Below, in pieces: positions 16,869 to 53,604 of a DNA stretch of 64,000 bases. Source of the DNA: Nemertoderma westbladi (Eukaryota > Animalia > Xenacoelomorpha); assembly GCA_032718475.1 (NCBI GenBank), contig JAUCBJ010009136.1, forward strand, positions 207,572-271,571, read 5' to 3'. Numbering within the stretch: position 1 is the first letter of the stretch; the number at the start of each line of letters is the position of its first letter. The notes under the pieces were generated by a model that saw only the letters and a list, made by a program, of their open reading frames with translations, was not told where the DNA came from and ran no database searches. A program made the position numbers and the translations under genes.

Positions 16869-19800
16869 GCTACACTCTCGAAATAATAATCGCTACACTC
16901 TCGAAATAATAATCGCCACACTCGAAATAATAATCGCTACACTCTCGAAATAATAATCACTACACTCTCGAAATAATAATCGCTACACTCTCGACATAAT
17001 AATCGCTATGCTCTTGAAATAATAATCGCTACGCTCTCGAAATAATAATTGCTATGCTCTCGAAATAATAATCGCTACGCTGTTGAAATAATAATCGCTA
17101 CGCTCTCGAAATAATAATCGCTACGCTGTTGAAATAATAATCGCTACACTCTCGAAATAATAATCGCTACGCTTTCGAAATAATAATCGCTACGCTCTCG
17201 AAATAATAATCGCTACGCTTTCGAAATAATAATCGCTACACTCTCGAAATAATAGTCGCTACGCTCTCGAAATAATAATCGCTATGCTCTCGAAATAATA
17301 ATCACTACACTCTCGAAATAATAATCGCTACGCTCTCGAAATAATAATCAATACGCTCTCGAAATAATAATCGCTACACTCTCGACATAATAATCGCTAT
17401 GCTCTTGAAATAATAATCGCTACGCTCTCGAAATAATAATTGCTATGCTCTCGAAATAATAATCGCTACGCTGTTGAAATAATAATCGCTACGCTCTCGA
17501 AATAATAATCACTACGCTCTCGAAATAATAATCGCTACGCTCTCGAAATAATAATCGCTACGCTCTCGAAATAATAATCACTACGCTCTCGAAATAATAA
17601 TCGCTACGCTCTCGAAATAATAATGCTACGCTCTTGAATTAATAATGCTACGCTCTCGAAATAATAATGCTACACTCTCGAAATAATAATCACTATGCTC
17701 TCGAAATAATAATCGCTACGCTCTCGAAATAATAATCGCTATGCTCTTGAATTAATAATGCTACGCTCTCGAAATAATAATGCTACACTCTTGAAATAAT
17801 AATCGCTATGCTCTCGAAATAATAATGCTACACTCTCGAAATAATAATCGCTACGCTCTCAAAATAATAATCGCTGCGCTCTCAAAATAATAATCGCTAC
17901 GCTCTCAAAATAATAATCGCTACGCTCTCGAAATAATAATGCTATGCTCTCGAAATAATAATTGCTACGCTCTCGAAATAATAATCGCTACACTCTCGAA
18001 ATAATAATCACTACGCTCTCGAAATAATAATCGCTACACTCTCGAAATAATAATCGCTATGCTCTCGAAATAATAATCGCTACGCTCTCGAAATAATAAT
18101 CGCTACGCTCTCGAAATAATAATGCTACACTCTCGAAATAATAATGCTACACTCTCGAAATAATAATTGCTACGCTCTCGAAATAATAATGCTACACTCT
18201 CAAAATAATAATCGCTACGCTCTCGAAATAATAATCGCTACGCTCTCAAAATAATAATCGCTACGCTCTCGAAATAATAATCGCTACGCTCTCAAAATAA
18301 TAATCGCTACGCTCTCGAAATAATAATTGCTACGCTCTCGAAATAATAATGCTACACTCTCGAAATAATAATCGCTACGCTCTCGAAATAATAATGCTAC
18401 ACTCTCAAAATAATAATCGCTACGCTCTCGAAATAATAATTGCTACACTCTCGAAATAATAATCACTACGCTCTCGAAATAATAATCACTACGCTCTCGA
18501 AATAATAATGCTATGCTCTCGAAATAATAATCGCTATGCTCTCGAAATAATAATCGCTACGCTCTCGAAATAATAATTGCTACGCTCTCGAAATAATAAT
18601 TGCTATGCTCTCGAAATAATAATCACTACACTCTCGAAATAATAATCACTACACTCTCAAAATAATAATCGCTATGCTCTCGAAATAATAATCGCTACGC
18701 TCTCGAAATAATAATGCTACACTCTCGAAATAATAATCGCTACGCTCTCGAAATAATAATGCTACACTCTCAAAATAATAATCGCTACGCTCTCGAAATA
18801 ATAATCGCTACACTCTCGAAATAATAATCACTACGCTCTCGACATAATAATCACTACGCTCTCGAAATAATAATTGCTACGCTCTCGAAATAATAATCGC
18901 TACACTCTCGAAATAATAATCACTACGCTCTCGAAATAATAATCACTATGCTCTCGAAATAATAATCACTACGCTCTCGAAATAATAATGCTACACTCTC
19001 GAAATAATAATCGCTACGCTTTCGAAATAATAATCGCTACACTCTAGAAATAATAATCACTACACTCTCGACATAATAATCGCTATGCTCTTGAAATAAT
19101 AATCGCTACGCTCTCGAAATAATAATTGCTATGCTCTCAAAATAATAATCACTACGCTCTCGAAATAATAATCACTACGCTGTTGAAATAATAATCGCTC
19201 GGCTCTCGAAATAATAATCGCTACGCTCTCGAAATAATAATCGCTACGCTTTCGAAATAATAATCGCTACACTCTCGAAATAATAATCGCTACACTCTCG
19301 ACATAATAATCGCTACGCTGTTGAAATAATAATCGCTCGGCTCTCGAAATAATAATCGCTACGCTCTCGAAATAATAATCGCTACGCTCTCGAAATAATA
19401 ATCACTACGCTCTCGAAATAATAATCACTACGCTGTTGAAATAATAATCGCTCAGCTCTCGAAATAATAATCGCTACGCTCTCGAAATAATCGCTACGCT
19501 TTCGAAATAATAATGCTATGCTCTCGAAATAATAATCGCTACGCTCTCGAAATAATAATCGCTATGCTCTCGAAATAATAATCACTACACTCTCGAAATA
19601 ATAATCACTACGCTGTTGAAATAATAATCGCTCGGCTCTCGAAATAATAATCGCTACACTCTCGACATAATAATCGCTATGCTCTTGAAATAATAATCGC
19701 TATGCTCTCGAAATAATAATCGCTACGCTCTCGAAATAATAATCGCTATGCTCTCGAAATAATAATCACTACACTCTCGAAATAATAATCGCTACGCTCT

Positions 19801-21951
19801 CGAAATAATAATTGCTATGCTCTCGAAATAATAATCGCTACACTCTCGAAATAATAATCGCTACGCTCTTGAAATAATAATCACTACACTCTCGAAATAA
19901 TAATCGCTATGCTCTCGAAATAATAATTGCTATGCTCTCGAAATAATAATCGCTACACTCTCGAAATAATAATCGCTACGCTCTCGAAATAATAATTGCT
20001 ATGCTCTCGAAATAATAATCGCTACACTCTCGAAATAATAATCGCTACGCTCTCGAAATAATAATCGCTACGCTGTTGAAATAATAATCGCTACACTCTC
20101 GAAATAATAATCGCTACGCTCTCGAAATAATAATCGCTACGCTGTTGAAATAATAATCACTACACTCTCGAAATAATAATCGCTACGCTCTCGAAATAAT
20201 AATTGCTATGCTCTCGAAATAATAATCGCTATGCTCTCGGAATGCTACGCTCTCGAAATAATAATCGCTACGCTCTCGAAATAATAATCGCTACACTGTT
20301 GAAATAATAATCGCTACACTCTCGAAATAATAATCACTACGCTGTTGAAATAATAATCGCTACACTCTCGAAATAATAATCACTATGCTGTTGAAATAAT
20401 AATCGCTACACTCTCGAAATAATAATCGCTATGCTCTCGAAATAATAATCGCTACGCTGTTGAAATAATAATCGCTACACTCTCGAAATAATAATCACTA
20501 CACTCTCGAAATAATAATCGCTACGCTCTCGAAATAATAATTGCTATGCTCTCGAAATAATAATCGCTACGCTCTCGAAATAATAATCGCTACGCTCTCG
20601 AAATAATAATCGCTATGCTCTCGAAATAATAATCACTACACTCTCGAAATAATAATCGCTACGCTCTCGAAATAATAATTGCTATGCTCTCGAAATAATA
20701 ATCGCTACACTCTCAAAATAATAATCGCTACGCTCTCGAAATAATAATTGCTATGCTCTCGAAATAATAATCGCTACACTCTCGAAATAATAATCGCTAC
20801 GCTCTCAAAATAATAATCGCTACGCTGTTGAAATAATAATCGCTACACTCTCGAAATAATAATCGCTACGCTCTCGAAATAATAATCGCTACGCTCTCGA
20901 AATAATAATCACTACGCTGTTGAAATAATAATCGCTCGGCTCTCGAAATAATAATCGCTACGCTCTCGAAATAATAATCGCTACGCTTTCGAAATAATAA
21001 TCGCTACACTCTCGAAATAATAATCGCTACACTCTCGAAATAATAATCGCTATGCTCTCGAAATAATAATCACTACACTCTCGAAATAATAATCGCTACG
21101 CTCTCGAAATAATAATCAATACGCTCTCGAAATAATAATCGCTACGCTCTCGAAATAATAATCGCTACGCTCTCGAAATAATAATCGCTACACTCTCGAA
21201 ATAATAATCGCTACACTCTCGAAATAATAATTGCTACACTCTCGAAATAATAATCGCTACGCTCTCGAAATAATAATCGCTACACTCTCGAAATAATAAT
21301 CGCTACACTCTCGACATAATTATCGCTATGCTCTTGAAATAATAATCGCTACGCTCTCGAAATAATAATTGCTATGCTCTCGAAATAATAATCGCTACGC
21401 TGTTGAAATAATAATCGCTACGCTCTCGAAATAATAATCACTACGCTCTCGAAATAATAATCGCTACGCTCTCGAAATAATAATCGCTACACTCTCGAAA
21501 TAATAATCGCTACACTCTCGAAATAATAATCGCTACGCTCTCGAAATAATAATCGCTACACTCTCGAAATAATAATCGCTACACTCTCGACATAATTATC
21601 GCTATGCTCTTGAAATAATAATCGCTACGCTCTCGAAATAATAATCGCTACGCTCTCGAAATAATAATCGCTACGCTCTCGAAATAATAATTGCTACACT
21701 CTCGAAATAATAATCGCTACACTCTCGAAATAATAATCGCTACACTCTCGAAATAATAATCGCTACGCTCTCGAAATAATAATCGCTACACTCTCGAAAT
21801 AATAATCGCTACACTCTCGACATAATTATCGCTATGCTCTTGAAATAATAATCGCTACGCTCTCGAAATAATAATTGCTATGCTCTCGAAATAATAATCG
21901 CTACGCTGTTGAAATAATAATCGCTACGCTCTCGAAATAATAATCACTACG
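16869..21951. repeat. Tandem array 3, 23-bp unit, left part
   Basis: Unit gctacgctctcgaaataataatc; interrupted by the LTR element and resumes at 40028. Confidence 0.98.
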
Positions 21952-22078
21952 TATAGAATTATATTCCCTAAATGCCGTGGATTTTCAAAATTTTTATTTT
22001 ATTCGGATTAACTTTGTAAAGATTGCTTTGAGTTCTCATTCGTATTGGTTCTATCATTTGTACATCTATCGGTCAAGT

Positions 22079-22165
22079 GGTTCAGTAGCTCAGTCGGTAG
22101 AGCGTTGGAAACTATATGTGTAGTAGGTATCGAGTTCGAATCCTAGTAAGTGCGAATTATTTTTT
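22079..22165 (+). ncRNA. tRNA-like Pol III unit in the 5' LTR
   Basis: A box with intact D-arm tagctcagtcggtagagc, B box gagttcgaatcc, T6 run at 22160-22165; anticodon and acceptor stems do not pair. Confidence 0.6.
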
Positions 22166-22222
22166 GTACAGAATTTCAACTCGTTTAAATTAACCGCTAC
22201 AAATTAATTGCATTTGTCTGTA

Positions 22223-22416
22223 CCAATGAGATTGTAGTTATTTTATTGTAACCAATGTCGTGCAAGTTATATATTAGCTGGACCAATAGCTATCTTTAAA
22301 ACCTTGTTAGAACCCATAGAACAATCGAGAATTTTCTCGATTGATTGCGGCACAAATTTGCTATAAAAAGGTGCGATTTGTTCATTAGTTATATATATTC
22401 TCTCAGTTATTCAGTT
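22223..22416 (+). promoter_or_regulatory. Putative LTR Pol II promoter
   Basis: CCAAT at 22223, 22252 and 22283 (about 30-bp spacing), TATAAAA at 22362, then TTAGTT/TCAGTT initiator-like motifs. Confidence 0.6.
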
Positions 22417-23561
22417 ATCTGATATTTGTTTATTCTGTCATTAGTTTTCAGATTACATTGTATTATAATTATATCTTCTGTAATAAAGTCAGAATATTCT
22501 CTCAGCTTTTCTATCTGTTTTACTATGGATTCACTACGGTGAACAAACTTAGGGACAGGATGGCCGGCTAGAGATCGGGCCGCAGCAATGAACGGGAACA
22601 TCACGGGAATGTAGACGAGAGACAACCCGCAATACCATTTAGAGTTATTCGCCCATCGCCTGAAAGGTTAGACAGCGTTCGACAGTGTCCATTGCATTAG
22701 AACTTGTAGGCTAGGGGGGTTGCTGTGTTTTCACCTGAATTGGGATTGTACCGTTCAGGCGGTAGGGCAGTTTACGTACTAGGCGCAAATAAATTGAGGC
22801 TATCAGGGATATACTAACATCTACCGTGTCCCCGCCAACGCCCTAATAGGAAGTTACCCGGACTACCTGGGTGACTAAAATTCTAGATAGGAGCCAGGAT
22901 AGCTATTAGTACCCGTACGCCTACAGTAGTAAACTAACACATCTCTTCTTAGTATCAGGGACCTGGTACCTAAAATTGCCGAATTCTGGGCGTAGTATTA
23001 ACCTTATGCCTGAATTTGAGTCCTGGAAATACGCAAGAGGGGAAGGAACCTTATCATTTGTGAGTATTGGACCTACAAGTTACAAAATTAGAATATTCGT
23101 AAAATGCACACCGTACCCAGTAATTATATATGTGAAGGAGCAAAACTGTTTTGACCGTTCAGAATTAACACACGCGCGTTAGAAATTATTTACACCTCGA
23201 AATATATAAAATTAACTTTGTCCGTACTGTGCTTTGCCCGCTAGTTAGACATCTCCAAATCTCTGCCTGTACCTAGCTAGCGTCTCTTCGCCCAACCATA
23301 TAAATCACACCGCGGCAAAGTATACGAGCCCCTTAGTCCGTCAGTGAGTCAGCCTGACTTTAGGATTCGCTGCGCGGGATTTGTTTTATCGAAGTTTGTC
23401 TGCTCGTAGACTGTTTTCTGCCTCACCGGTTATAAGAGATCGATACTGCAATATATTCGCTTACTTAGAGTTTACTGTTTTGGTGAGAAGGTCGGATTTA
23501 TGATTTGATTTACAAACTTTACAGTAGGATATTGCAGGTATTGTTACCGTCTCTTCCAATA

Positions 23562-23572
23562 GTAGGAATGTG
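23562..23572 (+). promoter_or_regulatory. Non-canonical primer-binding site candidate
   Basis: gtaggaatgtg abuts the 5' LTR, lacks TGG, and is the exact reverse complement of cacattcctac at 38993-39003. Confidence 0.6.
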
Positions 23573-24370
23573 TTTTACTGAACTACGGTTCGGTAGGACT
23601 AAAGTTTTTTGAAAATTTTGTATTTTGAGGTAAAAATTTGTATTTGATTAGCTAAGTGCTAATTTTTTGAAATAAAATTTGATTTGAACCGCGTGTAAAA
23701 TATTTTTGGAATTGAATACCGGTGTTTAAAAAAGGGTTTAAATACCATATTGTACCGGTACAAAATTTTCGTAAAGTAAAACCTAACTCTTTTGTTTTTC
23801 AGGATTCAGAACTCATTTCTAGACTGTAACGGGAGCAAGACCGTGTTTAGCAAGTTTGGGAGATAGATAACTCAACAACTTTGGTTGGGAAAATCGCGTT
23901 TCGTCCGCAACGTTAAAAACGGAAAGGTTCACGTTCGGTTTGTATCTGGGAATCTGTTTTTCTGGAGAATCATTGGAGTGGGTGAGTTTGAAAAGTTGCA
24001 TAAATAAGTTAGGCATTACCGTATTAGTTAAAATTATTGTGGGTTCCACTGTCTCAAGTATTTATGCATTCCGTATGATTTCTTTGTTCATTGCTGAATT
24101 AGTCCGTATTATTGTATTTAATTTATCTTTTGATAACGCATATCGTTATCCGATTTATTTGTTATAAAATTGGCCGCTAGGCTAATTTTATTATATACTT
24201 ATTCCGTGACATTTATTTGCTGTAAAATTGGCCGTTTAGGCTAATTTTATCCATCTGCTATAAAATCGGCCGGTAGGCTAATTTTATAAGACTGTAATTA
24301 GTACCGTTTTGTACAAATACGGTAAACTCGATACTTTGACACTCACTTTACTTGACTTACAACTACCGAA

Positions 24371-24583
24371 ATGAGTGACAAACAAGACTATACGAAAAAT
24401 ACACAAACCGACTATGACTCATGTGACGGAGATAAGTCAGCAGCGGAAGAACAACAGGGGAAGACTCGCGAGCCTACCGAACCTACACCGTGTGCGTCAC
24501 CAGTACATCCAACGGGAGTACCGGATGCCGTAGTACGAGGTGACGGCAGGACCGAGGACTTTCTAAGTGTTCCGCAACCTTGA
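24371..24583 (+). CDS. 70-aa ORF in frame with Gag-Pol (probable Gag N-terminus cut by TGA, or uORF)
   Basis: 24599-24371 = 228 = 76 codons; a single TGA at 24581-24583 separates the two ORFs. Confidence 0.5.
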   Translation: MSDKQDYTKNTQTDYDSCDGDKSAAEEQQGKTREPTEPTPCASPVHPTGVPDAVVRGDGRTEDFLSVPQP

Positions 24584-24598
24584 TATAGGGAAACGGAC

Positions 24599-27500
24599 AT
24601 GGTAAGTTCAGCAGGAAGCCAGGAAAGTGTGGTTAGAAGCGTCGGAGGTTACATGGCGCATATAACCAGGAGTATTGGAGAAGGTCATCGCATATTAGAC
24701 GGGTTGACCGCTCCGATGTCTCGATTCGAGTTCTACACCCTCCAGGTTAGGGTACAGAGTAAAGTATATAAGTCCGTAGATAATCTAGTTGGCCTACAAG
24801 ATCTAGCTAGACAGAGACAGGACATGGATACTCAACTTAGAATCCTCGAGAAACTAATGATCGCTAGAGAGAAACTGATCCAGTTTAAGTCGACGATTAG
24901 ACAGATACAACAGGAACAAGCGGACCAGTTGTTAGGTGAGTCAGTTTCGGACGAATTATTACAGCCCGAGGAAGAACAGGAATTGTACCGATTGGATGGA
25001 CAATTGAAACATTTGACGGACCACTTACGTATGTGCGGCGAAGACGTCAGCGATTCGGAAACCGTGCCGGAATATACGAGGGAAACTTCACCCGTACGAA
25101 TCGAATCGGCACCGGGAATACTGGACCAATCGTTAGTGAGTATTCGCAGCGAAATTGGCGAGATAAGTATAGTGACGTCAGAAATTTCCAGACAGCAACA
25201 ACAGCACGACAGACAACGACGAGAAGCGGAGGAACAAGCACAACTGTTGACGGCACAAGCAGCGATGCAAGAAGAGAAACTACGCGTTGCGAATGTTGCA
25301 AGAATCTCTCATCTGCAAGAACAAGCCGAGTTGGAAGCAGCCGAGATGGAAAGGTTGGAGCTAGAAATAGCACAGCGAACAGCGACAGCTGAGTTAGCGC
25401 AACAAGCGGCAGCAGCTGAGTTAGAACGACAAGCAGCAGCAGCGGAGTCGGAGCGACGAGCAGCAGCAGCGGAGTCGGAGCGACGAGCAGCAACAGCGGA
25501 ACTAGAGCGACGAGCAGCGGAGTTGGAAGAACACAAGCGAGTTTCGGAAGCAAGAGCTGAAATGAAAAAACGGCAAATAAAGGCTCAATCAGCGATAAGA
25601 CAAGCGGAGCTCGAGGCGCAACAACAACAGACGGAACAACGCGAGAAGGAAGTTAAACTTCATTTCGAACTCGGAAAGAAGGCGAGAGAATTAGCCAATG
25701 CGAAGGAAGATCTGGATCTACAAGCCCGCGATCGATCGATGAGATCTCGAGATGGACACGATCTAGACCAGTTAGAGGTAAGGCACCGCCAAATCCAGGA
25801 ACGAATGAAGGAAGGTTCGGTAGGGGCACCTGGACGAGAAAGACAATTAGTTAAGGACTTATGTCAAAGATTCCCTCAGGTAACTCCTATGTTTGCACCT
25901 GTTACGACTAAAGAACCTGTTTCGATTGCTGGTAGCAGTGATATCTCTCCTATCCATGGTGTGACGGAACACAGGTTTGTTATTCCGGACAAGTTTATAC
26001 CTTCAAGAGCAACGTCGTCGCCTATTCCGAAAGTCAAGGTAAGTAACCCGCCGATTACAGATCGTAGTAGTTTGTTGACTGGACCTGCACTACTGACGAC
26101 TAAACAGGTGAGTCCACCGTCGACCCCTAAACCTGTTACACACTACGCTTACCCAATGACGTTTCGACCAACAAGGCCTTTGGATTCAAAAGCGGTCATT
26201 CGCCCACCGATTCAGTTTACATCGCAATCTACGACTTCGAGGAAGACTTGTGAGCCTACCGAACAACGGAGAACAGTGGAGACGCGACCGTTCAACCAGT
26301 GTACATCGCAATCTACGACTTCGAGGAAGACTTGTGAGCCTACCGAACAACGGAGACTAGTGGATACGCGACCGTTCAACCAGTGTACATCGCAATCTAC
26401 GACTTCGAGGAAGACTTGTGAGCCTACCGAACAACGGAGAATAGTGGACGATGTTCCGAAACGGAACGTTAGAATTCGTACGACGCAACGAACGCGAGCA
26501 CGTCGACCACCATATCCAGATGATAGTAGTACTTCGAGCGAATCGGATTACCCGAAACGCGAGGTATTTAGAACAGGGGCGGCCGATGAATATAAACGCG
26601 AGCGTTCAGACAACTCCTTTGCAGACAATCCTCCACAGAATACACCAACACAGAAGGCGTTACAACCAACGGACGCAATTAGTACACAACAGTTCGCCGA
26701 CATCATGCGACCAGTTGTTAACAAGTTGGCTCAGATCGAGGAACGTCTGGAGGAAGGTTACACCGACAGTTCGAGAAATTCCGAATTCGAACACAATAGA
26801 CACCCGAAGGAACCACAAAGACCGGTACCTTCAAAACACACATCGTATCAGGGAAAGGCGCCAAGAAGGGAGAATATCAACCAGGTTACCAACCAAGGAC
26901 GCGAAACTCTGAACGTTGCCGAGGAGATAGCGAAATTCGCAGCCAGACAAGGATTGCCGGTACAACAACCACCGAAGTTTTCCGGTAGCTCAAAACACTG
27001 GCATACTTTCGTAGACTATATCGAATCCCAGATCGCCGTGTGCGCCTTTACATCACGGGAGAAGTTTAATTACCTGCTTCAAACGTTGTCAGGAGAACCT
27101 AAACGTTTGGCGGAGACTTTCGTCGGTGTACCGGACGCTTTCGAACTAGCGTACGATCGTTTAACTTCGATATACGGAGGTACAGTTAGTATGGCCAGGT
27201 CAGTAATAGAGGAACTCTGTAAGGGAGGGGCTATCACTAAACCCGTCGACTTACTAAAACTAGCTGACGAGATCAAGAACGCTATCACTACCTTAAGATC
27301 AATTGGACAACTTGATTACGGGAATACCCCTACAGTCCTATTAAAGATCATAGGACGACTCCACCATCGACTTCGTCGGGAGTGGAGGAAGGTCGAATAC
27401 CAGCGAGAAGAGCGGGGAGGATTCTTAAAATTAGAAGATGTGTACCTTTTAATATCCAGGGAGGCGGTAGTAGAAACTCGATCTAACTACACCGACCAGC

Positions 27501-30500
27501 ACATCGTGGCAGAAGGGATCACATTGCCATCCTCCAACCGACAAAAACCCCAGACAACATCCACTAAGACGGCCACTTACACCACACCGACGGAATCACG
27601 ACAATTCTCGGACGGAGGTAGGGTATCTGCGCCCATTGGGACAAAACAAACGAGACAGCAACTTGGTACCGACTTCAGTGGCTGCCAATACTGCGAGCAT
27701 CTAGGTAAGCGGTATATCGGTCACAAGTTACGAGGTTGTCGACAATTTCGCGAGTTGAACTCGGAAGAGCGACGGCTGCAAATACGGCCACTGGACTCTT
27801 GTTGGCGGTGTACGCGACACGGACACGTCCGTAAAGATTGCCCAAATACCGACACTTGTCCATCCTGTGGACGCAACCACGACGGTCTGCTCCACACAGA
27901 CAGCCACACGCCGACGAAACGCTTCGCCAGGGAACACCCGGAAGCAGCAGCGAGATGTGATGCGGCTTACCGAAAACGAGAATCGAAAACGACTCCAACC
28001 TTCGTGACCCATATTGAGGATTGCTTCTCAGAACAATCCGGATCGTCGGACGAAGAATCAGAAGACGACGAATATTCCAATGGAGACGAACAACCGTCGA
28101 TCGCGCTTCTGACCACTGACCAACTGAAGGGATTCAGTGTAATCCCGATTAAGATCACTGGCACAAAGGGGAGTAAGAGGATCTACGCGATTCTAGATTC
28201 AGCCTCATCTCATAGCTACGTGGATGAAAAGATAGCTGACGTAGTGACGGATCTTAAACAAGGTAAGCATGTCAGTTATACAGTAAGTAGTATGCACGGA
28301 CAGCGTGCAATACCAGTAACACGAGTTAAGTTGGACTTAGACTCTCTTCTTCCAAAATCGCAGCACAGCGAGAGGGAGAGGTCTTTGTTGCCCTTTAGAG
28401 ATCTAACCTTTGCGGCCACGAAGGACTTTAGTAACCTACTAGGTCCAGTGCCGGAACAATCTCTAGAGGACCGTAAGTATTTCAGACACCTTGGTGTACC
28501 CGAATGTCCTGTCAATTATAGATCGGTAGCCATGCTGATCGGGACGGACCAATTCAACCTACATCAGGTGTGGGAAACTAGACCATCGGCAGTTGTAGCG
28601 GGAAACGCATACGCCTGCAGAACGCCGATAGGGTGGTATACTCGAGCGCCTATGCGCACACTAGACGTAAGTGACGAGGAAGACGATGTACAGAGTACAT
28701 GTAGTTTATTAACTACAAATTCAATTCATTCCTTTTCACACGACGTGAACCATACTACACTACAGTCGACAAAACATAACAGACGTGTAACTAGTATGAT
28801 AAGTCACAAGGAGCAGCTAATTCACCAGGTGAGTTTAGAACTTGGGGAGAAGACGAGTCAGCTAGAGATTCCATCGACGACAGATGATAGGCTTGCGAGT
28901 CTACCTACCCCAATAACCTCAACAGTGCCCGTCGAGATCGATGATGATGCGTTGAGAAATCATCAGTTGGAACAAGCTGTACTAGACAAGGAATTAACGG
29001 AGAAGACTATCAGGTGGTTGGAACAAGATACAGCTGAACCTGGTAGCTACGAACCTTGTATGTCAGAACAGGAGAAACAATCTCTGAAGATCATGGAAGA
29101 TACTATCCGCCAGACGAAAGACGGACATTATGAGGTAGGGATGTTATGGCGTAGCCAAAGTCCTAAACTTATAAACAACTATCCACTAGCCTTGAGACGT
29201 CTACACTCAATACGGCAACGTCTATTAAAGGACGAGAAAGCCCATCTGCAGTATAACACTCAGATGGAGACGTATTTGACTAAGGGATACGCTATCCGAA
29301 TGACTAACCCAGAGATAGTGACTAACCAGACATACTACCTGCCACATCACTATGTGAGACATCCCGACAAACCAGATAAAGTACGCGTAGTCAATGATTG
29401 TGCGGCTCTATTTGAGGGAATGTCCCTCAATAGTGAGTTGATGGATGGACCAAACATGAATAATTATCTTATGGGGGTGATTATGCGCTTCCGTCAGCGA
29501 CAAGTAGCTTTTACTTGTGACGTTGAAGCGATGTTTCACCAAGTGAGAGCGTTAGAGCGAGACAGAGACAGTTTGCGGTTCCTCTGGTACCCGGAAGGAG
29601 ACTTAAGTCTACCACCGGCGACTTACCAAATGCAAGTTCGCGTTTTCGGTGCCAGAGACAGCCCAAATTGCACGATGTACGCCCTAAAGCAGGCCGCTAG
29701 AGATCAGAAACACCTGTATGACCCAGAGATAATTAGAATTGTGGAACGTGACTTTTATGTAGATGACGGTTTACAGAGTTGCGACACAGTAGAACGTGCT
29801 ACAACAGTAGCACATCAATTACGGGACTGCTTAGCGGGCGGAGGTTTTAACCTCACCAAATTCGCCTCAAACAGTGCCGAATTAGTAGACTCATTCGGGA
29901 CGACTGAGCGTGGAGGTGGTGACATAGACCTAGAGTTCGAACCACTACCGACGACTAAGGTGTTGGGGCTCTTTTGGGACCCAAACACAGACAACTTCCG
30001 AGTGAAAGTGAGACTGGACAGTCAAGAGAACACACTGACAAAGAGATCATGCTTGTCAAAGTTGAGCCGATTGTTCGATCCGTTAGGATTCATCAGTCCA
30101 GTGATACTGCAAGCCCGCATTTATATGCGCAGTATATGGAAGGATGGACTAACATGGGACGAGCCGATCTCATCAGACCAAGTGGACTTATGGAAGACCT
30201 GGGAGGCGGAATTATCTTCGCTAGAGGATTATTCCATACCCAGGGTTTACTTTCCATTACAAAGTACATTTCCTGACAACTTGGAACTACACTGTTTTTC
30301 TGACGCCAGTGACAACGGTTTTGGTGTGGCAGCGTACTTGCGCAGACAAGTAGAATCAGACGAGTTCGATGTTTCGCTCATTACTTCTAAGGCTAAGACC
30401 ATGCCTACTAAGTATATGACGACACCACGAGCCGAGCTACAAGCCGCAACCCTGTCAACCACCATCGTGAACCTCATACAGACAGAACTACAGTCGAGTT

Positions 30501-33100
30501 TACAGATATTTTATTGGACTGACGCAACGTTGGTTTTATTTTACATAAACAACGACACACTCGAATTCAAGACATTCGTAGCTAACCGTCGCGCAGAAAT
30601 TCTAGATCGTTCAATAAAAGAGGATTGGCGACATTGTCCCGGACCACAAAACCCAGCTGATATTGCGTCGCGAGGAATGATGCCTGAGGAATTCTGTAAA
30701 CCGGAGAACAAAGAATTTTGGCAACACGGACCCCAATTCTTGCAGAAATCGACACAAGATTGGCCTCCGTTATACGACAACAAATCTAACACTATCCCAA
30801 AGGACGCCGAAATCAAGAAACCAAAAAAGGGGAAGACAAAGAAAAAGACAACGGCGGCAAAACTCAAGAAGAAACCGAAGGCAAAATGGAAAGATATAAC
30901 TTCAAAGGTCAAGAGAGGAAGACTTGCGAGCCTTTCTACACCAGACATATCGCCAGACGGTCAACCAGACACGTTACTAGACGGTCAACCAGACATTCTA
31001 CCAGACATTAGTAACGCATTGACAAACAGTAAAGCCGCAGTTTCCCTATTGGAGCGGCCTTCTATTGACAAACAACCAGATACGTTACCAGACGTATCGC
31101 CAGACACATTACTAGACAGTCGACTAGACACTAGTAACGTACTGACAAATAGTGAAGCCGCAGTTTCTCTATTGGAGCGGCCTTGTATTGACAAACTACC
31201 AATTTTGACACACTTGAGCAACCATAAGCAAGGTGAAACCTCATGTATTACAGATGTGGGTAGTACCTACGCTAATGTAAATACAGGTGTTACTTTGCGC
31301 TCAAGAGACATACCGAACTTGCAACCTATGGTGAGACCTGGGATTAATGTCGGCAGGAAAATAAGTTTACCGAAACCTGCTGACCCCATAGAGTTCAAAC
31401 CACCATTAACGATCGACTTACAAAGTACTGACGATCAAGGTAAGAAGACGAAGAAGGACAAATTACTTGTAGACCCCGACGGATCAACAGTCAACAAGGG
31501 AATACTTACCGGCGGACCCGTGGGCCCTTCTAGTAATTCAAAACCTTCCAAAATCTCCATTGACTTACCTGATGACGTCACAAATACTCATGTCGACCGT
31601 ATTGTAAACCTAACAGATTCTTGGACAAACGCTTGCCGAAAATTAGCGTGGATTGTACGTTTTGTACAATACGTTAAAGGCAAACGTGACTTTACACGTC
31701 GACTTACATTGGCTGAGATTGACAGGTGTGAGATTAAATTAATTCGCCATTACCAACTGCGATATTTCGCGCGCGAATTCACATCCATAAATCAAGGTCA
31801 ACCAATCAAGTTGTCACCAATACTGAGTTGGAGTCCGATTATTTATAATGGCTTAATTTATCATAAATCTCGGCTTCAAAACATTGACTTTAACACAAAC
31901 TTTAGGTACCCAATAATAATACCGCAACACCACGAACTACAACGTGCAATGATACTGGACGCACATCTACATCTGAAACACGCTGGAAGACACCACTGTC
32001 TTTCCTACTTACGTACTAGATTTGTATTAATTAGACCCAGTAAAGCATTAAGTTCAGTGACACGTACGTGTATTATTTGTAAAAAGGTACATTCTAGAAT
32101 AGGTACCCAAGAAATGAGTGAACTACCACAAGCACGACTTCAAGCATTCAAACCACCTTTTACAGAGACTGGAATTGATTGCTTTGGTCCCATACATACG
32201 AAACGTGGACGTATACTAGTAAAACGCTGGGGACTGATTTTCACATGTATGTCCAGTAGGGCAGTTCATATTGAACGTGTGATGGATCTTTCCACCTACG
32301 CGTTTATACTAGCACTGCGGCGATTTATCGCTAGACGCGGACTAGTAAAATGCTTGTACTCAGACCAAGGGACAAACTTTGTTGGTGCTCGGAATGAGAT
32401 TGCTAGAGCCTTTAAGAAATTAGATCATGATCAAATCTCGAACGAACTACAACCTCACAAGATTGTTTGGAAGTTCAACCCTCCAGATAGTCCTTGGAGA
32501 GGCGGAGTCTGGGAGAGATTGATTAGATCTATAAAGACAGCCATGGCAAAGGTCATTCCAGTAAACCACATATTAACAGACGACCAACTGACAACATTGT
32601 TTGTTGAAATCGAGGCAATACTAAATACTAGACCAATAGTATTAGTACCCGATGACAAACAATCTCAATTTGCTTTAACACCAGCACACCTGCTAATGCA
32701 GGCACCGACTACTTTGACGCCGATTTCTATTCCAATAGAAAGCGACAGCTACGGTAGAAAAGCGTGGAAAATCACGCAACTACTAGCTAACAAATTCTGG
32801 GAAATATGGCAAAACCATTATTTGCCCTCTATTTCTGCCAGAACAACTTGGTACAATAACACCCGCGCATTAAAGCCGGGAGATCACGTGCTGTTGGCAG
32901 AAGTGAATCTAAAAAGACGCTTCTGGATAACAGGTGTAATTTTAGCCACACATCCATCTATGGATGGAGTGACAAGAACTGTGACGGTACGGACAATTGA
33001 CGGTCGTACAGTAGACAGACCGACTCAACGTCTCGTACTTCTTGAAGAGACTCGTAACGAGTCTGGAGACTACAAATCTCCACCTAATACTAGTAAATAA
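24599..33100 (+). CDS. BEL/Pao Gag-Pol polyprotein, 2833 aa
   Basis: Coiled coil; Gag PKFSG..W; three Cys/His knuckles ending CPSCGRNHDGLLH; protease ILDSAS; RT FTCDVEAMFHQ and FYVDD; RNase H HCFSDAS, WTDA, NPADIASRG; integrase GIDCFGP, SDQGTNF, GGVWERLI. Confidence 0.97.
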   Translation: MVSSAGSQESVVRSVGGYMAHITRSIGEGHRILDGLTAPMSRFEFYTLQVRVQSKVYKSVDNLVGLQDLARQRQDMDTQLRILEKLMIAREKLIQFKSTIRQIQQEQADQLLGESVSDELLQPEEEQELYRLDGQLKHLTDHLRMCGEDVSDSETVPEYTRETSPVRIESAPGILDQSLVSIRSEIGEISIVTSEISRQQQQHDRQRREAEEQAQLLTAQAAMQEEKLRVANVARISHLQEQAELEAAEMERLELEIAQRTATAELAQQAAAAELERQAAAAESERRAAAAESERRAATAELERRAAELEEHKRVSEARAEMKKRQIKAQSAIRQAELEAQQQQTEQREKEVKLHFELGKKARELANAKEDLDLQARDRSMRSRDGHDLDQLEVRHRQIQERMKEGSVGAPGRERQLVKDLCQRFPQVTPMFAPVTTKEPVSIAGSSDISPIHGVTEHRFVIPDKFIPSRATSSPIPKVKVSNPPITDRSSLLTGPALLTTKQVSPPSTPKPVTHYAYPMTFRPTRPLDSKAVIRPPIQFTSQSTTSRKTCEPTEQRRTVETRPFNQCTSQSTTSRKTCEPTEQRRLVDTRPFNQCTSQSTTSRKTCEPTEQRRIVDDVPKRNVRIRTTQRTRARRPPYPDDSSTSSESDYPKREVFRTGAADEYKRERSDNSFADNPPQNTPTQKALQPTDAISTQQFADIMRPVVNKLAQIEERLEEGYTDSSRNSEFEHNRHPKEPQRPVPSKHTSYQGKAPRRENINQVTNQGRETLNVAEEIAKFAARQGLPVQQPPKFSGSSKHWHTFVDYIESQIAVCAFTSREKFNYLLQTLSGEPKRLAETFVGVPDAFELAYDRLTSIYGGTVSMARSVIEELCKGGAITKPVDLLKLADEIKNAITTLRSIGQLDYGNTPTVLLKIIGRLHHRLRREWRKVEYQREERGGFLKLEDVYLLISREAVVETRSNYTDQHIVAEGITLPSSNRQKPQTTSTKTATYTTPTESRQFSDGGRVSAPIGTKQTRQQLGTDFSGCQYCEHLGKRYIGHKLRGCRQFRELNSEERRLQIRPLDSCWRCTRHGHVRKDCPNTDTCPSCGRNHDGLLHTDSHTPTKRFAREHPEAAARCDAAYRKRESKTTPTFVTHIEDCFSEQSGSSDEESEDDEYSNGDEQPSIALLTTDQLKGFSVIPIKITGTKGSKRIYAILDSASSHSYVDEKIADVVTDLKQGKHVSYTVSSMHGQRAIPVTRVKLDLDSLLPKSQHSERERSLLPFRDLTFAATKDFSNLLGPVPEQSLEDRKYFRHLGVPECPVNYRSVAMLIGTDQFNLHQVWETRPSAVVAGNAYACRTPIGWYTRAPMRTLDVSDEEDDVQSTCSLLTTNSIHSFSHDVNHTTLQSTKHNRRVTSMISHKEQLIHQVSLELGEKTSQLEIPSTTDDRLASLPTPITSTVPVEIDDDALRNHQLEQAVLDKELTEKTIRWLEQDTAEPGSYEPCMSEQEKQSLKIMEDTIRQTKDGHYEVGMLWRSQSPKLINNYPLALRRLHSIRQRLLKDEKAHLQYNTQMETYLTKGYAIRMTNPEIVTNQTYYLPHHYVRHPDKPDKVRVVNDCAALFEGMSLNSELMDGPNMNNYLMGVIMRFRQRQVAFTCDVEAMFHQVRALERDRDSLRFLWYPEGDLSLPPATYQMQVRVFGARDSPNCTMYALKQAARDQKHLYDPEIIRIVERDFYVDDGLQSCDTVERATTVAHQLRDCLAGGGFNLTKFASNSAELVDSFGTTERGGGDIDLEFEPLPTTKVLGLFWDPNTDNFRVKVRLDSQENTLTKRSCLSKLSRLFDPLGFISPVILQARIYMRSIWKDGLTWDEPISSDQVDLWKTWEAELSSLEDYSIPRVYFPLQSTFPDNLELHCFSDASDNGFGVAAYLRRQVESDEFDVSLITSKAKTMPTKYMTTPRAELQAATLSTTIVNLIQTELQSSLQIFYWTDATLVLFYINNDTLEFKTFVANRRAEILDRSIKEDWRHCPGPQNPADIASRGMMPEEFCKPENKEFWQHGPQFLQKSTQDWPPLYDNKSNTIPKDAEIKKPKKGKTKKKTTAAKLKKKPKAKWKDITSKVKRGRLASLSTPDISPDGQPDTLLDGQPDILPDISNALTNSKAAVSLLERPSIDKQPDTLPDVSPDTLLDSRLDTSNVLTNSEAAVSLLERPCIDKLPILTHLSNHKQGETSCITDVGSTYANVNTGVTLRSRDIPNLQPMVRPGINVGRKISLPKPADPIEFKPPLTIDLQSTDDQGKKTKKDKLLVDPDGSTVNKGILTGGPVGPSSNSKPSKISIDLPDDVTNTHVDRIVNLTDSWTNACRKLAWIVRFVQYVKGKRDFTRRLTLAEIDRCEIKLIRHYQLRYFAREFTSINQGQPIKLSPILSWSPIIYNGLIYHKSRLQNIDFNTNFRYPIIIPQHHELQRAMILDAHLHLKHAGRHHCLSYLRTRFVLIRPSKALSSVTRTCIICKKVHSRIGTQEMSELPQARLQAFKPPFTETGIDCFGPIHTKRGRILVKRWGLIFTCMSSRAVHIERVMDLSTYAFILALRRFIARRGLVKCLYSDQGTNFVGARNEIARAFKKLDHDQISNELQPHKIVWKFNPPDSPWRGGVWERLIRSIKTAMAKVIPVNHILTDDQLTTLFVEIEAILNTRPIVLVPDDKQSQFALTPAHLLMQAPTTLTPISIPIESDSYGRKAWKITQLLANKFWEIWQNHYLPSISARTTWYNNTRALKPGDHVLLAEVNLKRRFWITGVILATHPSMDGVTRTVTVRTIDGRTVDRPTQRLVLLEETRNESGDYKSPPNTSK

Positions 33101-33760
33101 TTAGGAGTTTACAAATAGATTTCCACGTACCTGTACACTGTAGTAAGGACAGCGGTAGAATTCCATTGTCTTTATATGTGAACATTGAGGGTAGTACCCT
33201 TATGTGTCACATAGGAGCGGGATTTGTAGGTATAAGAAATGGAATTCTACTTGGAACTCACAATATTGAGACATTTTCGAAATTTTAGACAATCCATTTG
33301 GATTTGAAAATTTTTAAAATTTTCTCCAGTGAATAGATTTCAGGGTACAGTCGGGTGGAACTTAAAATTAGAGAAACAAGAGAGGAAGACTTGCGAGCCT
33401 TTCTTAAAAATTTTAATTAAATTTTACACGGTCTTGTTTCAATAAGTTACGTCAATAAATAGACTCCCCTATATTTATTACTAATTCTTGACTGCTTATT
33501 TTCTGATAATAGTTTGGGATCAAAAAGTGAGTATTTTAGACTCACAGCCAGTTTAGCCCAAATTCGTTTTTACTTCGGCAAAAATTTTAGATAAGAAGCA
33601 GCGTGTCATTAAAGAAACCCTAGATCTTAGGCTATGGGTAGGAGGTTAGAGCGTTGTCGAAGCCCAAAGGGCAGACGAAACTCTCACGTCTCCTCACAAC
33701 TAACTACAAACTCTGTTGTATTCCCTCTAGTAGTAATGATTATGTAACTACACCCTAATT

Positions 33761-34936
33761 ATGGAGAAAGGGATACAAGGAGAGCCGAGATGGGGATATG
33801 ATATCCAAGAGGAGGCAGCAGCGCCATTCGAAAGATTTGGAGCCAAGGATTATACTATATTTGGTATAAAAGAATTATCGGAAAGTACAGCGAAACTCGC
33901 GAGAACTAAATATGACTCGAACGTATTAAAGAGAAGGCAAAACGCATTAAACGAAAGAATCGAAAGTTTGCGCCAAACCTTCAACGAACTTTACCCGTAC
34001 GATGCTTTGTGTGATACGGGAGACATTAGCGAAGACCCCGATACTGAAATTAGTCGTTTGTATCATACCATGCAATACCTAAAGGCGCACGAACCTATGC
34101 CCGCAGTACGCGATGAATTCGATGGAATGCATCTTTACAGACGAACTCGAGGGGACGATAGAGAAACCAAGGAAGCATTTTCAGTTTATAAACTTTATTA
34201 TCAATGCGGTTCTTGTATGCGCGAACAACGAAATGCGATTCCGATGCGTTTGAATAAGGAAAATCCCGAACCGATATTGGCGAGGTGTTCGAATCATCAA
34301 CAACTACGCTACCAGGAAGGAGGGTATCCTTTATCGAATCCATATCATTCATTTGCTATGACCGGACCAAAGGCGGGAGAAACTGTCATTTACCCACCTA
34401 AGGTTGTTGAACCCGATGTATTTGAACTTACGCTGGACGAGGCGAATCAGTCAACCCGCGAAAAGAAAGAAGCTCTTAGCCTATACAGAGCCTACAAGGC
34501 TTTCGAGAAAGGTGAGATGGAAGAATGGGGTGGAAGACTCGCGAGCCTACCTTGCCATTGGACGTCACACGATCAAACTTCAGCTAAGGAGATGACACCG
34601 GAAGTTTTCGAGAGCATAAACTTTGCTCAAAACGTTATTCAGAGATTACAGATTGCATCCCCGGAGAGGCCAAGAGAAATGCAACCGTATAGTACTTCAA
34701 CTACGAAACCATTGAGTACGACACTCAATTTCCCTATTAGTATACCAGTCCGACAGGATACGACGTACGAAATACCCATCGTGGATCATCCAGAAATCAT
34801 TTCAAACTTGGAGTTTCTTCCTGCAGTTGTTTTCAGCGATATGAGTAAGATATATGATTTATGTAGACATATTACTCAAAAGGTCGTGCGTTGTGCACGA
34901 GGTTCAAGATTTCAAGATTTTCAAGGAACTGGATAG
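33761..34936 (+). CDS. Accessory ORF2 of the retrotransposon, unknown function (391 aa)
   Basis: Long ATG-initiated ORF inside the element, preceded by a branch point and acceptor; contains CGSC...CSNH; no evident signal peptide or TM helix. Confidence 0.75.
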   Translation: MEKGIQGEPRWGYDIQEEAAAPFERFGAKDYTIFGIKELSESTAKLARTKYDSNVLKRRQNALNERIESLRQTFNELYPYDALCDTGDISEDPDTEISRLYHTMQYLKAHEPMPAVRDEFDGMHLYRRTRGDDRETKEAFSVYKLYYQCGSCMREQRNAIPMRLNKENPEPILARCSNHQQLRYQEGGYPLSNPYHSFAMTGPKAGETVIYPPKVVEPDVFELTLDEANQSTREKKEALSLYRAYKAFEKGEMEEWGGRLASLPCHWTSHDQTSAKEMTPEVFESINFAQNVIQRLQIASPERPREMQPYSTSTTKPLSTTLNFPISIPVRQDTTYEIPIVDHPEIISNLEFLPAVVFSDMSKIYDLCRHITQKVVRCARGSRFQDFQGTG

Positions 34937-37490
34937 AGCTGGTGCCGACATAGCTCCGAGTAATCTGAAAGGATATCTAACCAAGACGATTCGTTTATGG
35001 ATTGGAACCGGAACCTTCGAGTCGGATACAGATATTGCCGCAGATTGGCGAGGTAAGGTTATTCGTTTCGATGAGGATAAGGATATAGAGAAGATTTGGC
35101 AACCTTCGGAAGAATTGTTGGATGAATGGACTAGGACGTTTAGATCGTTTCAGGAAAACGGTTATATGTTTTACGATAACGAGGGCGGCAGTCATCAGCA
35201 GAGTTTGACTTCTAAGACTATACAGATTAGAGCGGCGGACGGAGTCCTGCACGTTTTCAGTAGACAGAGGAGCGACAAACGAATGCCGATACCTCCAGCG
35301 AATACAAAGCGACACCATCTTATCACCGATATAGTAAAGAAGATGGACCAAGCTTGTAATATTGACGCTAGAATGCTACCGAAGATGGTAAGAAACATGA
35401 TTTTAGATAAAACTGTTGTAAAGGTTGGATCAGGAGTAAGGGAGGATTTAATTAGCGACTTTGCCGGCATGACGGACAGCGATGACCGACTACCGACACC
35501 ATACGTCGACACTCGACCTCTTATTCTGTGGTCTATAGAACAGGGATATTTTCGTGAGTATAATACTCAGAAGACTGGAACTGGATACATTTCCTACCTG
35601 TTATTCAATTGGGATTATAAGGAAGGTAAAAGAAACAAGTATATTGAAACTTATGGAGAAGGTGATACTCCAGATATGAGTGAGTTTGAATCACAGCTTA
35701 AATGGAGAGGATGCGTGTATTGGGCTATTACGTCACCTCCAAGAGCGGTCTTACAATATTATTTAGCGATAGAGTCGTCAGTGAATGTTTGCCTAATCGC
35801 CGACATTGTGTCTCGGACTCTCAAAAGACATCCACTTTGTCTCGGAGAAGATCATACGTTCTACATGGAAGGGAGAATTCGTACCGACGTGTTTAGACGA
35901 TTCCTTGAACCCTTCTACAACTCCGACGCTCAGTGTAATGCCTTTACTCGAGCAGGATTTAGTATATTTCGAGACGTGTATCTTTGCTGTGCGGGATCTC
36001 TTATCGAAAGACCATCTATGTTTACATTGTTACCCTATGAAGGAGAACGTATCGTGGAAATTACGGATGAATCACGGCAGACGCGCGCGCCTATCGGTCA
36101 CCTTGGTGATGAATTCGAAGTAACTACTACGATCGCCGACGATCCTTTAGAGGAACTTCTTGAGATAGAAAGGAACCTCCCGAAGAAATCTCAGACGGAG
36201 ATTCGACAACTTGAAGCAACAGATGCTATAGTTTGTATACAACCTTCAGAAACCTACCAACCCATAGACCCAGATGATTATGATTATAGTGTGGGAGGAA
36301 GCGCTCGACCGATTGGAGATCTTATATACGAACGAGTGTGGTACCCTGCCAATACGATGTGTAGTAAATGTGGCGTCGCTGGACATCATATGGCAAAGTG
36401 CAGTGGAAAGCACATTACTACGACTCAGCTAATCTGTGGATGGTGTGGGGATCAAGGGTCTCATACCTTTTATACTTGCTGGAGATTTATGGCTCAATGT
36501 ACTTATTGCAATATAAAGGGACATCGAGCATCTGAATGCCAACTAAGAGACATACCTTATGAACACGAATCTGTAAAACTCGTGAGGAAGTTATTTGATG
36601 AGTGGGAAGATTTAGCCGACGAACATGTATCGGCACAAAGAAGACGGTTTCCGATGAGAGCGCATCTCGGATTTTGGGCGGTAAATCCTCAGACGATGAT
36701 GTCGGAAGGATATATCTCCGCTATGCCCCAATATGACGAACTTATCGAGGTTGTCGATATTTTGCCCCACGACAGCGGATTCCGAGTGGTGCGCGAGTAT
36801 CTGTTACAAATTCACCCGGATAACAAAAACACGTGGAATTTTCAGAAAGTCATTAATCGGATTACGTATGGTGAATTCGATCGTTTCCGAACTGAAAAGC
36901 GGAACAAGGGAGCTTGGTTAACCGTCGCATGGGCATACCGAGCCGCGTTTTACCACAAACGTATACGAGCGAGCGTATTCGAGGAAGAAGAGGTCCTAGA
37001 GGCGACAAATATACCAGCCACTCCGGTTGCGCCGTCTGCACGTCACCCTCGGGAGGACGGGCAGGGTAGGATCATACGGGTCCAAAAGGTGGGCCAACAA
37101 TTAAAGAAAATTATTAATGTAGAAGAACGCAAGGGAGTTGAGCCGACTATTCGAGTTACTCGGGATACGGTATCACTTCCAAGAGAACCAGTAGGAGGAT
37201 CGGGACATACACCAGCTGATCAACAGGGGGCGCAAGCTACTCTTGGGTCTGCGTCGTCCACTTCTCGCGCGTTCCCAGACGTTCTACCAACTGTAGTGAC
37301 GACTGATCGGTCACGAGGAATCGGTCGAGGTTTTGGGATGCTAAATAAACGAATTTGCGAGGAAATAGTCGCACCGTCTCTCAACGTCCCAAGTAAACCA
37401 GTGACTCGCCCCACAAGTCCCATATCGCGAGCAAAGTCACCTGTGCGCAGTTTTCGAGGACGCGGCAGGGCTCGATCCACTAAGCGATAA
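34854..37490 (+). CDS. Accessory ORF3: DEDDy (WRN/RNase D-like) 3'-5' exonuclease domain plus three zinc knuckles (878 aa)
   Basis: MFYDNEG (ExoI), TIQIR, LPKMVRNMILDKTVVKVGSGVREDL (ExoII), YVDTRPL, QYYLAIE (ExoIII-like); CSKCGVAGHHMAKC, CGWCGDQGSHTFYTC, CTYCNIKGHRASEC. Confidence 0.78.
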   Translation: MIYVDILLKRSCVVHEVQDFKIFKELDRAGADIAPSNLKGYLTKTIRLWIGTGTFESDTDIAADWRGKVIRFDEDKDIEKIWQPSEELLDEWTRTFRSFQENGYMFYDNEGGSHQQSLTSKTIQIRAADGVLHVFSRQRSDKRMPIPPANTKRHHLITDIVKKMDQACNIDARMLPKMVRNMILDKTVVKVGSGVREDLISDFAGMTDSDDRLPTPYVDTRPLILWSIEQGYFREYNTQKTGTGYISYLLFNWDYKEGKRNKYIETYGEGDTPDMSEFESQLKWRGCVYWAITSPPRAVLQYYLAIESSVNVCLIADIVSRTLKRHPLCLGEDHTFYMEGRIRTDVFRRFLEPFYNSDAQCNAFTRAGFSIFRDVYLCCAGSLIERPSMFTLLPYEGERIVEITDESRQTRAPIGHLGDEFEVTTTIADDPLEELLEIERNLPKKSQTEIRQLEATDAIVCIQPSETYQPIDPDDYDYSVGGSARPIGDLIYERVWYPANTMCSKCGVAGHHMAKCSGKHITTTQLICGWCGDQGSHTFYTCWRFMAQCTYCNIKGHRASECQLRDIPYEHESVKLVRKLFDEWEDLADEHVSAQRRRFPMRAHLGFWAVNPQTMMSEGYISAMPQYDELIEVVDILPHDSGFRVVREYLLQIHPDNKNTWNFQKVINRITYGEFDRFRTEKRNKGAWLTVAWAYRAAFYHKRIRASVFEEEEVLEATNIPATPVAPSARHPREDGQGRIIRVQKVGQQLKKIINVEERKGVEPTIRVTRDTVSLPREPVGGSGHTPADQQGAQATLGSASSTSRAFPDVLPTVVTTDRSRGIGRGFGMLNKRICEEIVAPSLNVPSKPVTRPTSPISRAKSPVRSFRGRGRARSTKR

Positions 37491-38140
37491 AAGGGAGGGC
37501 AAGGGTGGATGGAAGACTCGTGGGCCTTTCTTATGATTTGTGATTTATTTGAATTTATATTTATATTTGTGTTTATTCCGAACTTAAGCAATTTGTATTG
37601 TTCCGAATTTGTATTTAGAAAGTTTATATTTAAAAGGAACTTATATTTGAAAGATTTATGTTTCATATTTGAGATGCAAAGGAGTTTATATTATTCTAAA
37701 CTTATGCAGTTTATATTTAGTAAAGATTTATATTTAGTAAGAATTTATATTTTATATTTGTAATTATTCCGAACTTATGCAATTTATATTATTCCGAACT
37801 TATGCAATTTATATTGTTCCGAATATTATGTAATTTACATTTTATAGGCAGTATTTACAGTGAAATAGAAATAATTGTTTGAATTTATGTAATATTGAGA
37901 TGCAATAGATTTATATTGGTGAATTTAATTTAGATTTATATTGTACTTACTTAGTAAAGCCTTAAATACGTAAAGTTTGAATTTGTAATTATTTTGTATC
38001 GAATCATTACGTAGAAAGGAAGTATTGTTTGAAATTTAATTGTAAATATGTAAGTACGCCCTAAGTATTCTATAGTTTGATTGATTATTGGTGAAAACCG
38101 TATATTTTATGCACGATAATATCCTGTTTTCATGGAGCGG

Positions 38141-41032: not shown

Positions 41033-41086
41033 TCTACAAATATAGTCTACTTTTTCATTTAAATAGTAAATAATATGTCAGAAACG

Positions 41087-53418: not shown

Positions 53419-53604
53419 CCTATAACAAATACCTCGAAAAATACAGCTTGCCAACACATTGTTACTATCAATCTCTAAGACTTCTGTTACGCTATTGGGC
53501 AGGGCGTTCAGATTGCTATTCCACTGTACGCACTCGAGTTCGGGAAAATAGGGTATTTTTGCCTGGATTTGGGCTTTTGTTTTGCGGTGCTTGTTTGCTG
53601 TCCA

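Follow-up and report, generated by a model that had tools for sequence, protein, structure and literature searches.

The closest described counterparts of the element analyzed here are Tf1 and Tf2 of S. pombe, which lack a tRNA site and instead contain a primer-binding site (PBS) of about 11 nt that is complementary to the RNA of their own LTR. In the available text on Tf1, the transcript's first 11 bases anneal to the PBS, with RNase H cleaving between bases 11 and 12 (PMC7175516). A flanking duplex involving the end of the LTR also appears in the accessible parts of this literature (PMC7175516; bioRxiv 10.1101/2022.12.06.519325), and our element may have one as well. Beyond the Tf1/sushi group, for which self-priming is reported, it has been predicted from PBS/LTR complementarity for the plant TAR (Copia) and the Tcn1 lineages; these belong to other superfamilies than our element, and the text at hand gives no intron-split or deep internal primer for them (PMC6317226).

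The ICTV profile of the Belpaoviridae, by contrast, gives an 18-nt PBS for host tRNA-Arg or tRNA-Gly, a size of 4-10 kb and LTRs of 0.2-1.2 kb, and BEL/Pao replication is called "poorly understood" (PMC8742986). A survey of BEL/Pao elements does not mention primer, PBS, tRNA, introns or splicing (PMC3118150), and the Sinbad paper does not mention tRNA, PBS or priming. The preliminary description of the present locus had called element-encoded priming in a BEL/Pao element not known to be described, and the literature that we searched, mainly titles and abstracts outside Repbase and GyDB, yielded no paper describing it, nor one describing a splice-made BEL/Pao primer. Cer7 of C. elegans reportedly encodes its own tRNA-like primer.

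The element and its primer-binding site

The window, i.e., the whole stretch of 64,000 nucleotides that was analyzed, harbors one LTR element (Table 1), which is inserted in a 23-bp satellite array and flanked by a target duplication of 5 bp. Tandem satellites, whose units measure 46, 41, 23, 66, 18 and 45 bp, make up most of the window (14-2756, 4209-11941, 16869-21951, 40028-41033, 41087-53376, 53597-55880, and 57784-59110). As only 5 of the 1616 aligned bases differ between the 5' and 3' LTRs, the insertion is young. Pao-type domains stand between the LTRs in the order protease-RT-RNase H-integrase, and the direct LTRs and the target-site duplication likewise agree with a BEL/Pao element. 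Three domains of the gag-pol ORF (PF03564, PF05380, and PF18701) exceeded the Pfam cut-off, and PF17921 (integrase zinc-binding) stayed below it. All of the best 120 homologues listed for gag-pol contain PF05380; the best ones are 39-44% identical in the RT-RNase H region, and the named homologues derive from marine invertebrates. In a quick, midpoint-rooted tree, in which the relatives are unnamed loci, the element lies on a long branch with a best identity of 44%, and we are unsure of its place among them. A search of viral contigs revealed no locus for the pol and none for the pattern of LTR end and PBS.

Judged by the sequence of its pol, we file the element as BEL/Pao-type and not as fitting the ICTV description. 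It shares LTRs and a gag-pol with Pao-type domains with the Belpaoviridae, whereas its size of 18.1 kb and its 1887-bp LTR lie outside the given ranges, an 18-nt PBS for a tRNA 3' end is absent, the ends are TA...TA, and there are two extra non-envelope ORFs (PMC8742986). The termini (21952-21953 and 40026-40027) are thus not TG...CA, which seemingly also applies to the relative L048. Tf1/sushi elements, with which our element shares a PBS complementary to its own LTR, are Ty3/gypsy chromoviruses and hence of a different superfamily; a chromodomain was not hit by Pfam in our element, whose pol is not of the Ty3/gypsy chromovirus type. The element, which would work by a form of self-priming like that of Tf1, stands outside the Tf1 group.

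Table 1. Positions of the features of the element in the window
Feature	Position	Strand	Remarks
5' target-site duplication CTACG	21947-21951	+	within 23-bp satellite array
BEL/Pao LTR element	21952-40027	+	18.1 kb; sole LTR element in the window
5' LTR	21952-23561	+	1610 bp, termini TA...TA
GT..AG intron, LTR donor to leader acceptor	22667-23802	+	joint in one X4 contig
Primer-binding site (PBS)	23562-23572	+	no TGG; complementary to 38993-39003
Predicted 12-bp hairpin, C(UACG)G loop	23572-23599	+	directly behind the PBS
70-codon ATG-started frame, TGA end	24371-24583	+	in frame, directly 5' of the gag-pol ORF
gag-pol ORF	24584-33100	+	2838 aa; PF03564, PF05380, PF18701
ORF2	33740-34936	+	398 aa; no family found
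ORF3	34845-37490	+	881 aa; region predicted as DEDD-type 3'-5' exonuclease, zinc-knuckle-like motifs
Short purine-rich stretch, presumed polypurine tract	38130-38140	+	5' of the 3' LTR; sequence only
3' LTR	38141-40027	+	1887 bp
TATAAA and initiator-like sequence, predicted promoter	38551-38600	+	predicted start near 38580
277-bp block without counterpart in the 5' LTR	~38872-39148	+	includes the LTR 11-mer
Putative self-primer	38993-39003	+	predicted 3' end C39003
Predicted second duplex, "pretzel"-like	39010-39030	+	would pair with LTR 3' end (23537-23557); weak statistical support
AATAAA, candidate poly(A) signal of packaged RNA	39254-39259	+	250 nt 3' of the primer end
3' target-site duplication CTACG	40028-40032	+	

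The end of the LTR is defined by the target duplication and by contigs of three sequencing runs that exit the LTR at 40027. Starting with the first base past this end (offset 0), the PBS GTAGGAATGTG is the exact reverse complement of CACATTCCTAC in the 3' LTR at 11 of 11 positions; each of the two 11-mers occurs once in the window, and the pairing ends at 11 nt on both sides. The expectation for such an 11-mer by chance is 0.00036 in the 1887-nt LTR and 0.0018 when five offsets are allowed, and none of 100 shuffled PBS controls reached 11 nt. A match to the CCA end of a host tRNA was excluded, as the PBS contains no TGG and the first TGG downstream of the LTR is found at position 23707. In these respects, the preliminary description proved accurate, as it had reported the perfect complementarity, the missing TGG, the 3' C of the LTR 11-mer opposite the base adjoining the LTR end, and a probability below 0.1% for an exact 11-mer in an LTR of about 1.9 kb. 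It had also placed the 11-mer about 400 nt behind a putative transcription start and in overlap with a C(UACG)G hairpin. The computed distance is about 410 nt, from a start that is predicted from the TATAAA at 38551, and there is indeed a hairpin across the 11-mer, albeit a weak one (-2.5 to -3.5 kcal/mol); a stronger one, predicted at -14.3 kcal/mol, adjoins the PBS. A splice-made primer was rejected for this element, since the best junction product pairs over 8 nt, below the contiguous 11.

In the sequenced copy, the match to the PBS exists only in the 3' LTR, since the 5' LTR, with a break point near 22682, lacks a 277-bp block that includes the 11-mer, a loss that the preliminary description had not mentioned. 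This copy is thus unable to make the primer from its own 5' LTR. The block is not an intron, as it has no GT..AG ends, but a deletion. As contigs of the runs X1, X3, and X4 cover the block, and X4 contigs exit the 5' LTR at both break edges carrying the letters of the block, the deletion is best read as private to the sequenced copy, in which case the 5' leader of the family would normally contain the 11-mer. Run X5 gave no cover at about 38823-39152, and the depth of the X4 contigs, which do not report RNA ends or levels, drops past about 38880 and once more beyond the PBS. The region 38860-39160 folds well (z -3.65), and a long hairpin is predicted at 39025-39157, just 3' of the putative primer and within the block. 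Among the listed variants of X4 and X5, none lies inside 23562-23572, apart from a loose end behind 23569. Having followed the PBS for 8 nt, two X4 contigs diverge into 7 other letters and then repeat the last 12 nt of the LTR. A loose end in X1 starts like these contigs exiting at 23569, pointing to a variant with a duplicated LTR end.

Pairing between PBS and LTR in distant relatives

Scanning metagenomes with an alignment of pol turned up 80 loci of 36-46% identity, 57 of which were examined. For a strict test, we used the 11 relatives whose LTR end is fixed by a second copy, leaving out L070 (repeat coding) and the duplicates L019, L032, and L037. In 8 of the 11, a PBS without TGG pairs perfectly with the LTR of the same element over 10-15 nt, beginning 0-4 nt from the LTR end, and at most 1 of 200 shuffles matched these positive relatives. 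Six different PBS sequences are represented among the eight. L010, L016, L034, and L039 are kin and have a common core. The complement is contiguous in L046, as in our element. With the other seven (L010, L016, L020, L022, L028, L034, and L067), it is found only after in silico removal of a predicted GT..AG intron of the LTR, and the primer end then lies 3-7 nt beyond the splice junction. This distinguishes most BEL/Pao relatives from Tf1, as described in the available text (PMC7175516), by a primer that would exist only after splicing; the preliminary description had not noted such an intron-split primer in relatives. Three of the 11 relatives failed: L058, the only one with a tRNA-type TGG site, has no complement in its own LTR, L048 has none either, and L039 needs one G:U pair.

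Exchanging the partners in silico demonstrated the specificity of the pairing. The PBS of our element reached a score of 11 with its own LTR and no more than 7 with the 11 other LTRs, other PBSs scored at most 8 on its LTR, and each PBS was best on its own LTR or that of close kin. As a few cells between unrelated families reached scores of 9-10, the 10-nt cases are marginal when taken alone. When the LTR end was withheld, complements exceeded all shuffles (0/30) in 9 of 17 regions; a second blind scan gave 11 of 35 regions at 0/20, with 6 regions repeated and many lacking a whole LTR. From 23 loci chosen as clear cases, we tallied 20 distinct primers, excluding duplicates and the ambiguous L007, L021, L038, and L060 and retaining L035, L053, and L075 for the context of their LTR end despite 6, 7, and 1 of 30 shuffles, respectively. 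The tallied primers end with AC (16/20), as does the putative primer of our element, or with AT (4/20), and all tallied duplexes start 0-4 nt from the LTR end.

This covariation of PBS and LTR is the decisive support for an element-encoded primer. The preliminary description had favored element-encoded priming independent of tRNA and had named covariation across related families as a check; the PBS of each family pairs with its own LTR RNA, which supports that reading of how the element would prime. The duplexes start 0-4 nt from the LTR end, covary, and end with a fixed dinucleotide, which is how a primer that sets the right end of the LTR should appear, and we consider it likely that the primer is encoded by the element.

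Two further aspects of the relatives concern the formation of the primer end. In 7 of the 8 positive relatives, AATAAA or ATTAAA is present 26-97 nt 3' of the primer end, and a cut at this end would therefore leave homology for strand transfer. The gap from the pol homology to the 3' LTR measures 24-672 nt in 22 of 22 relatives measured, and the lineage thus needs no extra nuclease gene. L032 and L039, in two contigs, are tandem elements with a common central LTR.

A possible route from LTR RNA to primer

In the route that we somewhat favor, a piece of its own LTR RNA would prime the element's reverse transcription. The cut in this RNA would fall just behind the duplex, after C39003, and the element's RNase H is its most likely agent. 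The complementarity of PBS and LTR 11-mer from the first base behind the LTR is found in the element itself, and the relatives demonstrate that the letters differ between families while the pairing is maintained. Unspliced RNA starting near 38580 could fold such that the 11-mer meets the PBS, which follows about 1 kb downstream. By analogy to Tf1, a cut behind the duplex would generate a 3'-OH on a long 5' fragment, from which the reverse transcriptase could copy back to the cut and then jump to the 3' copy of the LTR. This differs from Tf1 as described in the available text, where the first 11 nt of the transcript constitute the primer (PMC7175516), as the 11-mer of our element follows about 410 nt behind the predicted start.

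Such a jump would require that the packaged RNA ends past 39003, for example behind the candidate signal at 39254, instead of at the AATAAA found at 38671, which lies upstream of the primer 11-mer. This AATAAA is the main difficulty, because an RNA ending there and cut at 39003 would be left with no homology for strand transfer. Further points against the route are the absence of the 11-mer from the 5' LTR of the sequenced copy, the long branch, and the 3 of 11 relatives that fail. In favor of the route, X4 contigs run across the primer site at 38936-39124 and across the distal AATAAA at 39181-39595.

One X4 contig joins 22666 to 23803 across GT..AG. Its donor is situated in the LTR, upstream of the 11-mer, and its acceptor in the leader, so that this splice removes the primer and the PBS: along with the PBS, the intron takes out what remains of the LTR, and in copies with the 277-bp block the primer as well. 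The spliced RNA would thus be without primer and PBS and may serve translation only. The sequencing runs were available as contigs; none of them is recorded as RNA, and X4 is recorded as "DNA?". Nevertheless, X4 is probably RNA because of the GT..AG joint and of one contig that has 95 differences within 39183-39884, mostly A>G among those listed, which suggests A-to-I hyper-editing of LTR RNA.

A co-fold predicted a Tf1-like flanking duplex of 18 bp together with a local hairpin; the duplex is not significant, as 143 of 1000 shuffles and 26 of 1834 LTR windows were as good. In eight relatives, none of the flanking duplexes was significant, with 53-485 of 500 shuffles being as good.

ORF3, competing explanations, and further features

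ORF3 resembles a 3'-5' exonuclease of the DEDD type that carries zinc knuckles. It has acidic motifs near 35172, 35436, and 35757, which align with two unnamed proteins at D-x-E, D, and Y-x3-D/E (Exo I, II, and III), and three zinc-knuckle-like motifs at 36360-36560 follow the exonuclease-like region. By the Atlas features, residues 85-345 group with clusters of the exonuclease family PF01612 (score 0.93; 171 features; 24/30 matches). Pfam made no exonuclease domain call in ORF3, matches in the PDB were not significant (E 0.08-0.11), further homologue searches with ORF3 gave no match, and the two AlphaFold predictions had a pLDDT of 31. An additional ORF 3' of pol with DEDD-type motifs is also found in the rotifer elements Juno, Vesta, and Athena, whose ORF3 encodes a DEDDy exonuclease for which 3'-end processing has been suggested; that ORF is carried by other LTR lineages and by Penelope-like elements, and priming is not linked to it in the available text (PMC5408684). 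The RNase D of T. brucei (TbRND), a trimmer of guide RNAs, combines an exonuclease with CCHC knuckles as ORF3 would, although homology is statistically unsupported (PMC7797062, from the accessible text).

An element-encoded primer could also derive from another RNA end, if a transcript reading through the 3' LTR, or a separate one of the LTR, annealed to the PBS and the ORF3 exonuclease trimmed its 3' tail to the edge of the duplex at C39003. The motif alignment, the PF01612 score, and the architecture shared with the T. brucei enzyme argue for such trimming, which would also suit a copy with no primer in its 5' LTR and would leave the template uncut. We nevertheless regard it as unlikely, because none of the 22 measured relatives has room for such an ORF while many still keep the pairing, and because the exonuclease activity is only predicted, with no Pfam call and the weak PDB matches given above.

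Quite unlikely is an explanation that takes the pairing for a conserved structure with a role in regulation or packaging, which masks the LTR end or is coupled to splicing, and a host RNA or tRNA fragment for the primer. The ICTV describes the family as tRNA-primed (PMC8742986), and half-tRNA primers without TGG are given for Copia lineages in the available text of PMC6317226. However, at least 20 different PBS sequences, each specific for its own LTR, would need as many host RNAs, and in all tallied cases the duplex lies 0-4 nt from the LTR end and ends with A-C or A-U, as is expected of a primer by which the LTR end is set.

The plain Tf1 mechanism, in which a second start at 38993/38994 would make the first 10-11 nt of the RNA the primer, is rather improbable as well. 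The LTR 11-mer has exactly the length of the Tf1 primer, and its start lies in what we take to be an initiator-like pyrimidine-A context, which we counted for a second start site. In addition, alternative starts of Tf2 switch between copyable and non-copyable RNA, according to the available text (PMC5341516). Speaking against it, TATA-like hexamers are absent between 38551 and 39667, and the donor of the X4 joint is upstream of the 11-mer, matching the upstream promoter. Moreover, in several relatives (such as L034), the sole TATA is more than 100 nt upstream of the primer junction, although the first exon of L020 possibly comprises only a few nt. Chance or a local sequence accident, to which the long branch, the single family, and the lack of compensatory change within the family might point, is highly improbable in view of the expectation of 0.0018, the offset of 0, and the 3' dinucleotide common to 16 of 20 primers of relatives.

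A wider reading is that a broad lineage of animal BEL/Pao retrotransposons swapped tRNA priming for an internal LTR primer, with splicing as the switch and a captured DEDD exonuclease maturing the 3' end; splicing would then build the primer in most families and destroy it in the giant family of our element. As a whole, this appears doubtful to us. What our element adds is a deep contiguous putative primer, a splice that removes primer and PBS, and an exonuclease-like ORF. If the proposed priming is true, self-priming extends beyond transcript 5' ends and beyond Tf1-like and plant lineages, many annotations of the type "PBS not found" would be explained, and exonuclease ORFs carried by retroelements would have a first candidate role. 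The predictions of this priming are an RNA whose 3' end is C39003, strong-stop DNA that carries LTR-derived RNA, and a splice event on which the copying of an RNA depends.

With respect to RNA genes, ARAGORN found no tRNA gene, and Rfam gave no match and thus no ribozyme in 37500-40100 at E<=5. A tRNA-like stretch followed by a T-run is nevertheless visible in U3 at 38269-38355 (and at 22080-22166), for which neither program made a call at 38269-38355. It contains motifs that we take to be similar to A- and B-boxes, and presumably could represent a Pol III unit or a SINE head within the LTR. The 70-codon frame in front of gag-pol may be due to a lesion or may be an upstream ORF, between which we are undecided. 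ORF2 and ORF3 lie in different frames, and their overlap of 92 nt would be compatible with a frameshift, an intron, or separate genes.
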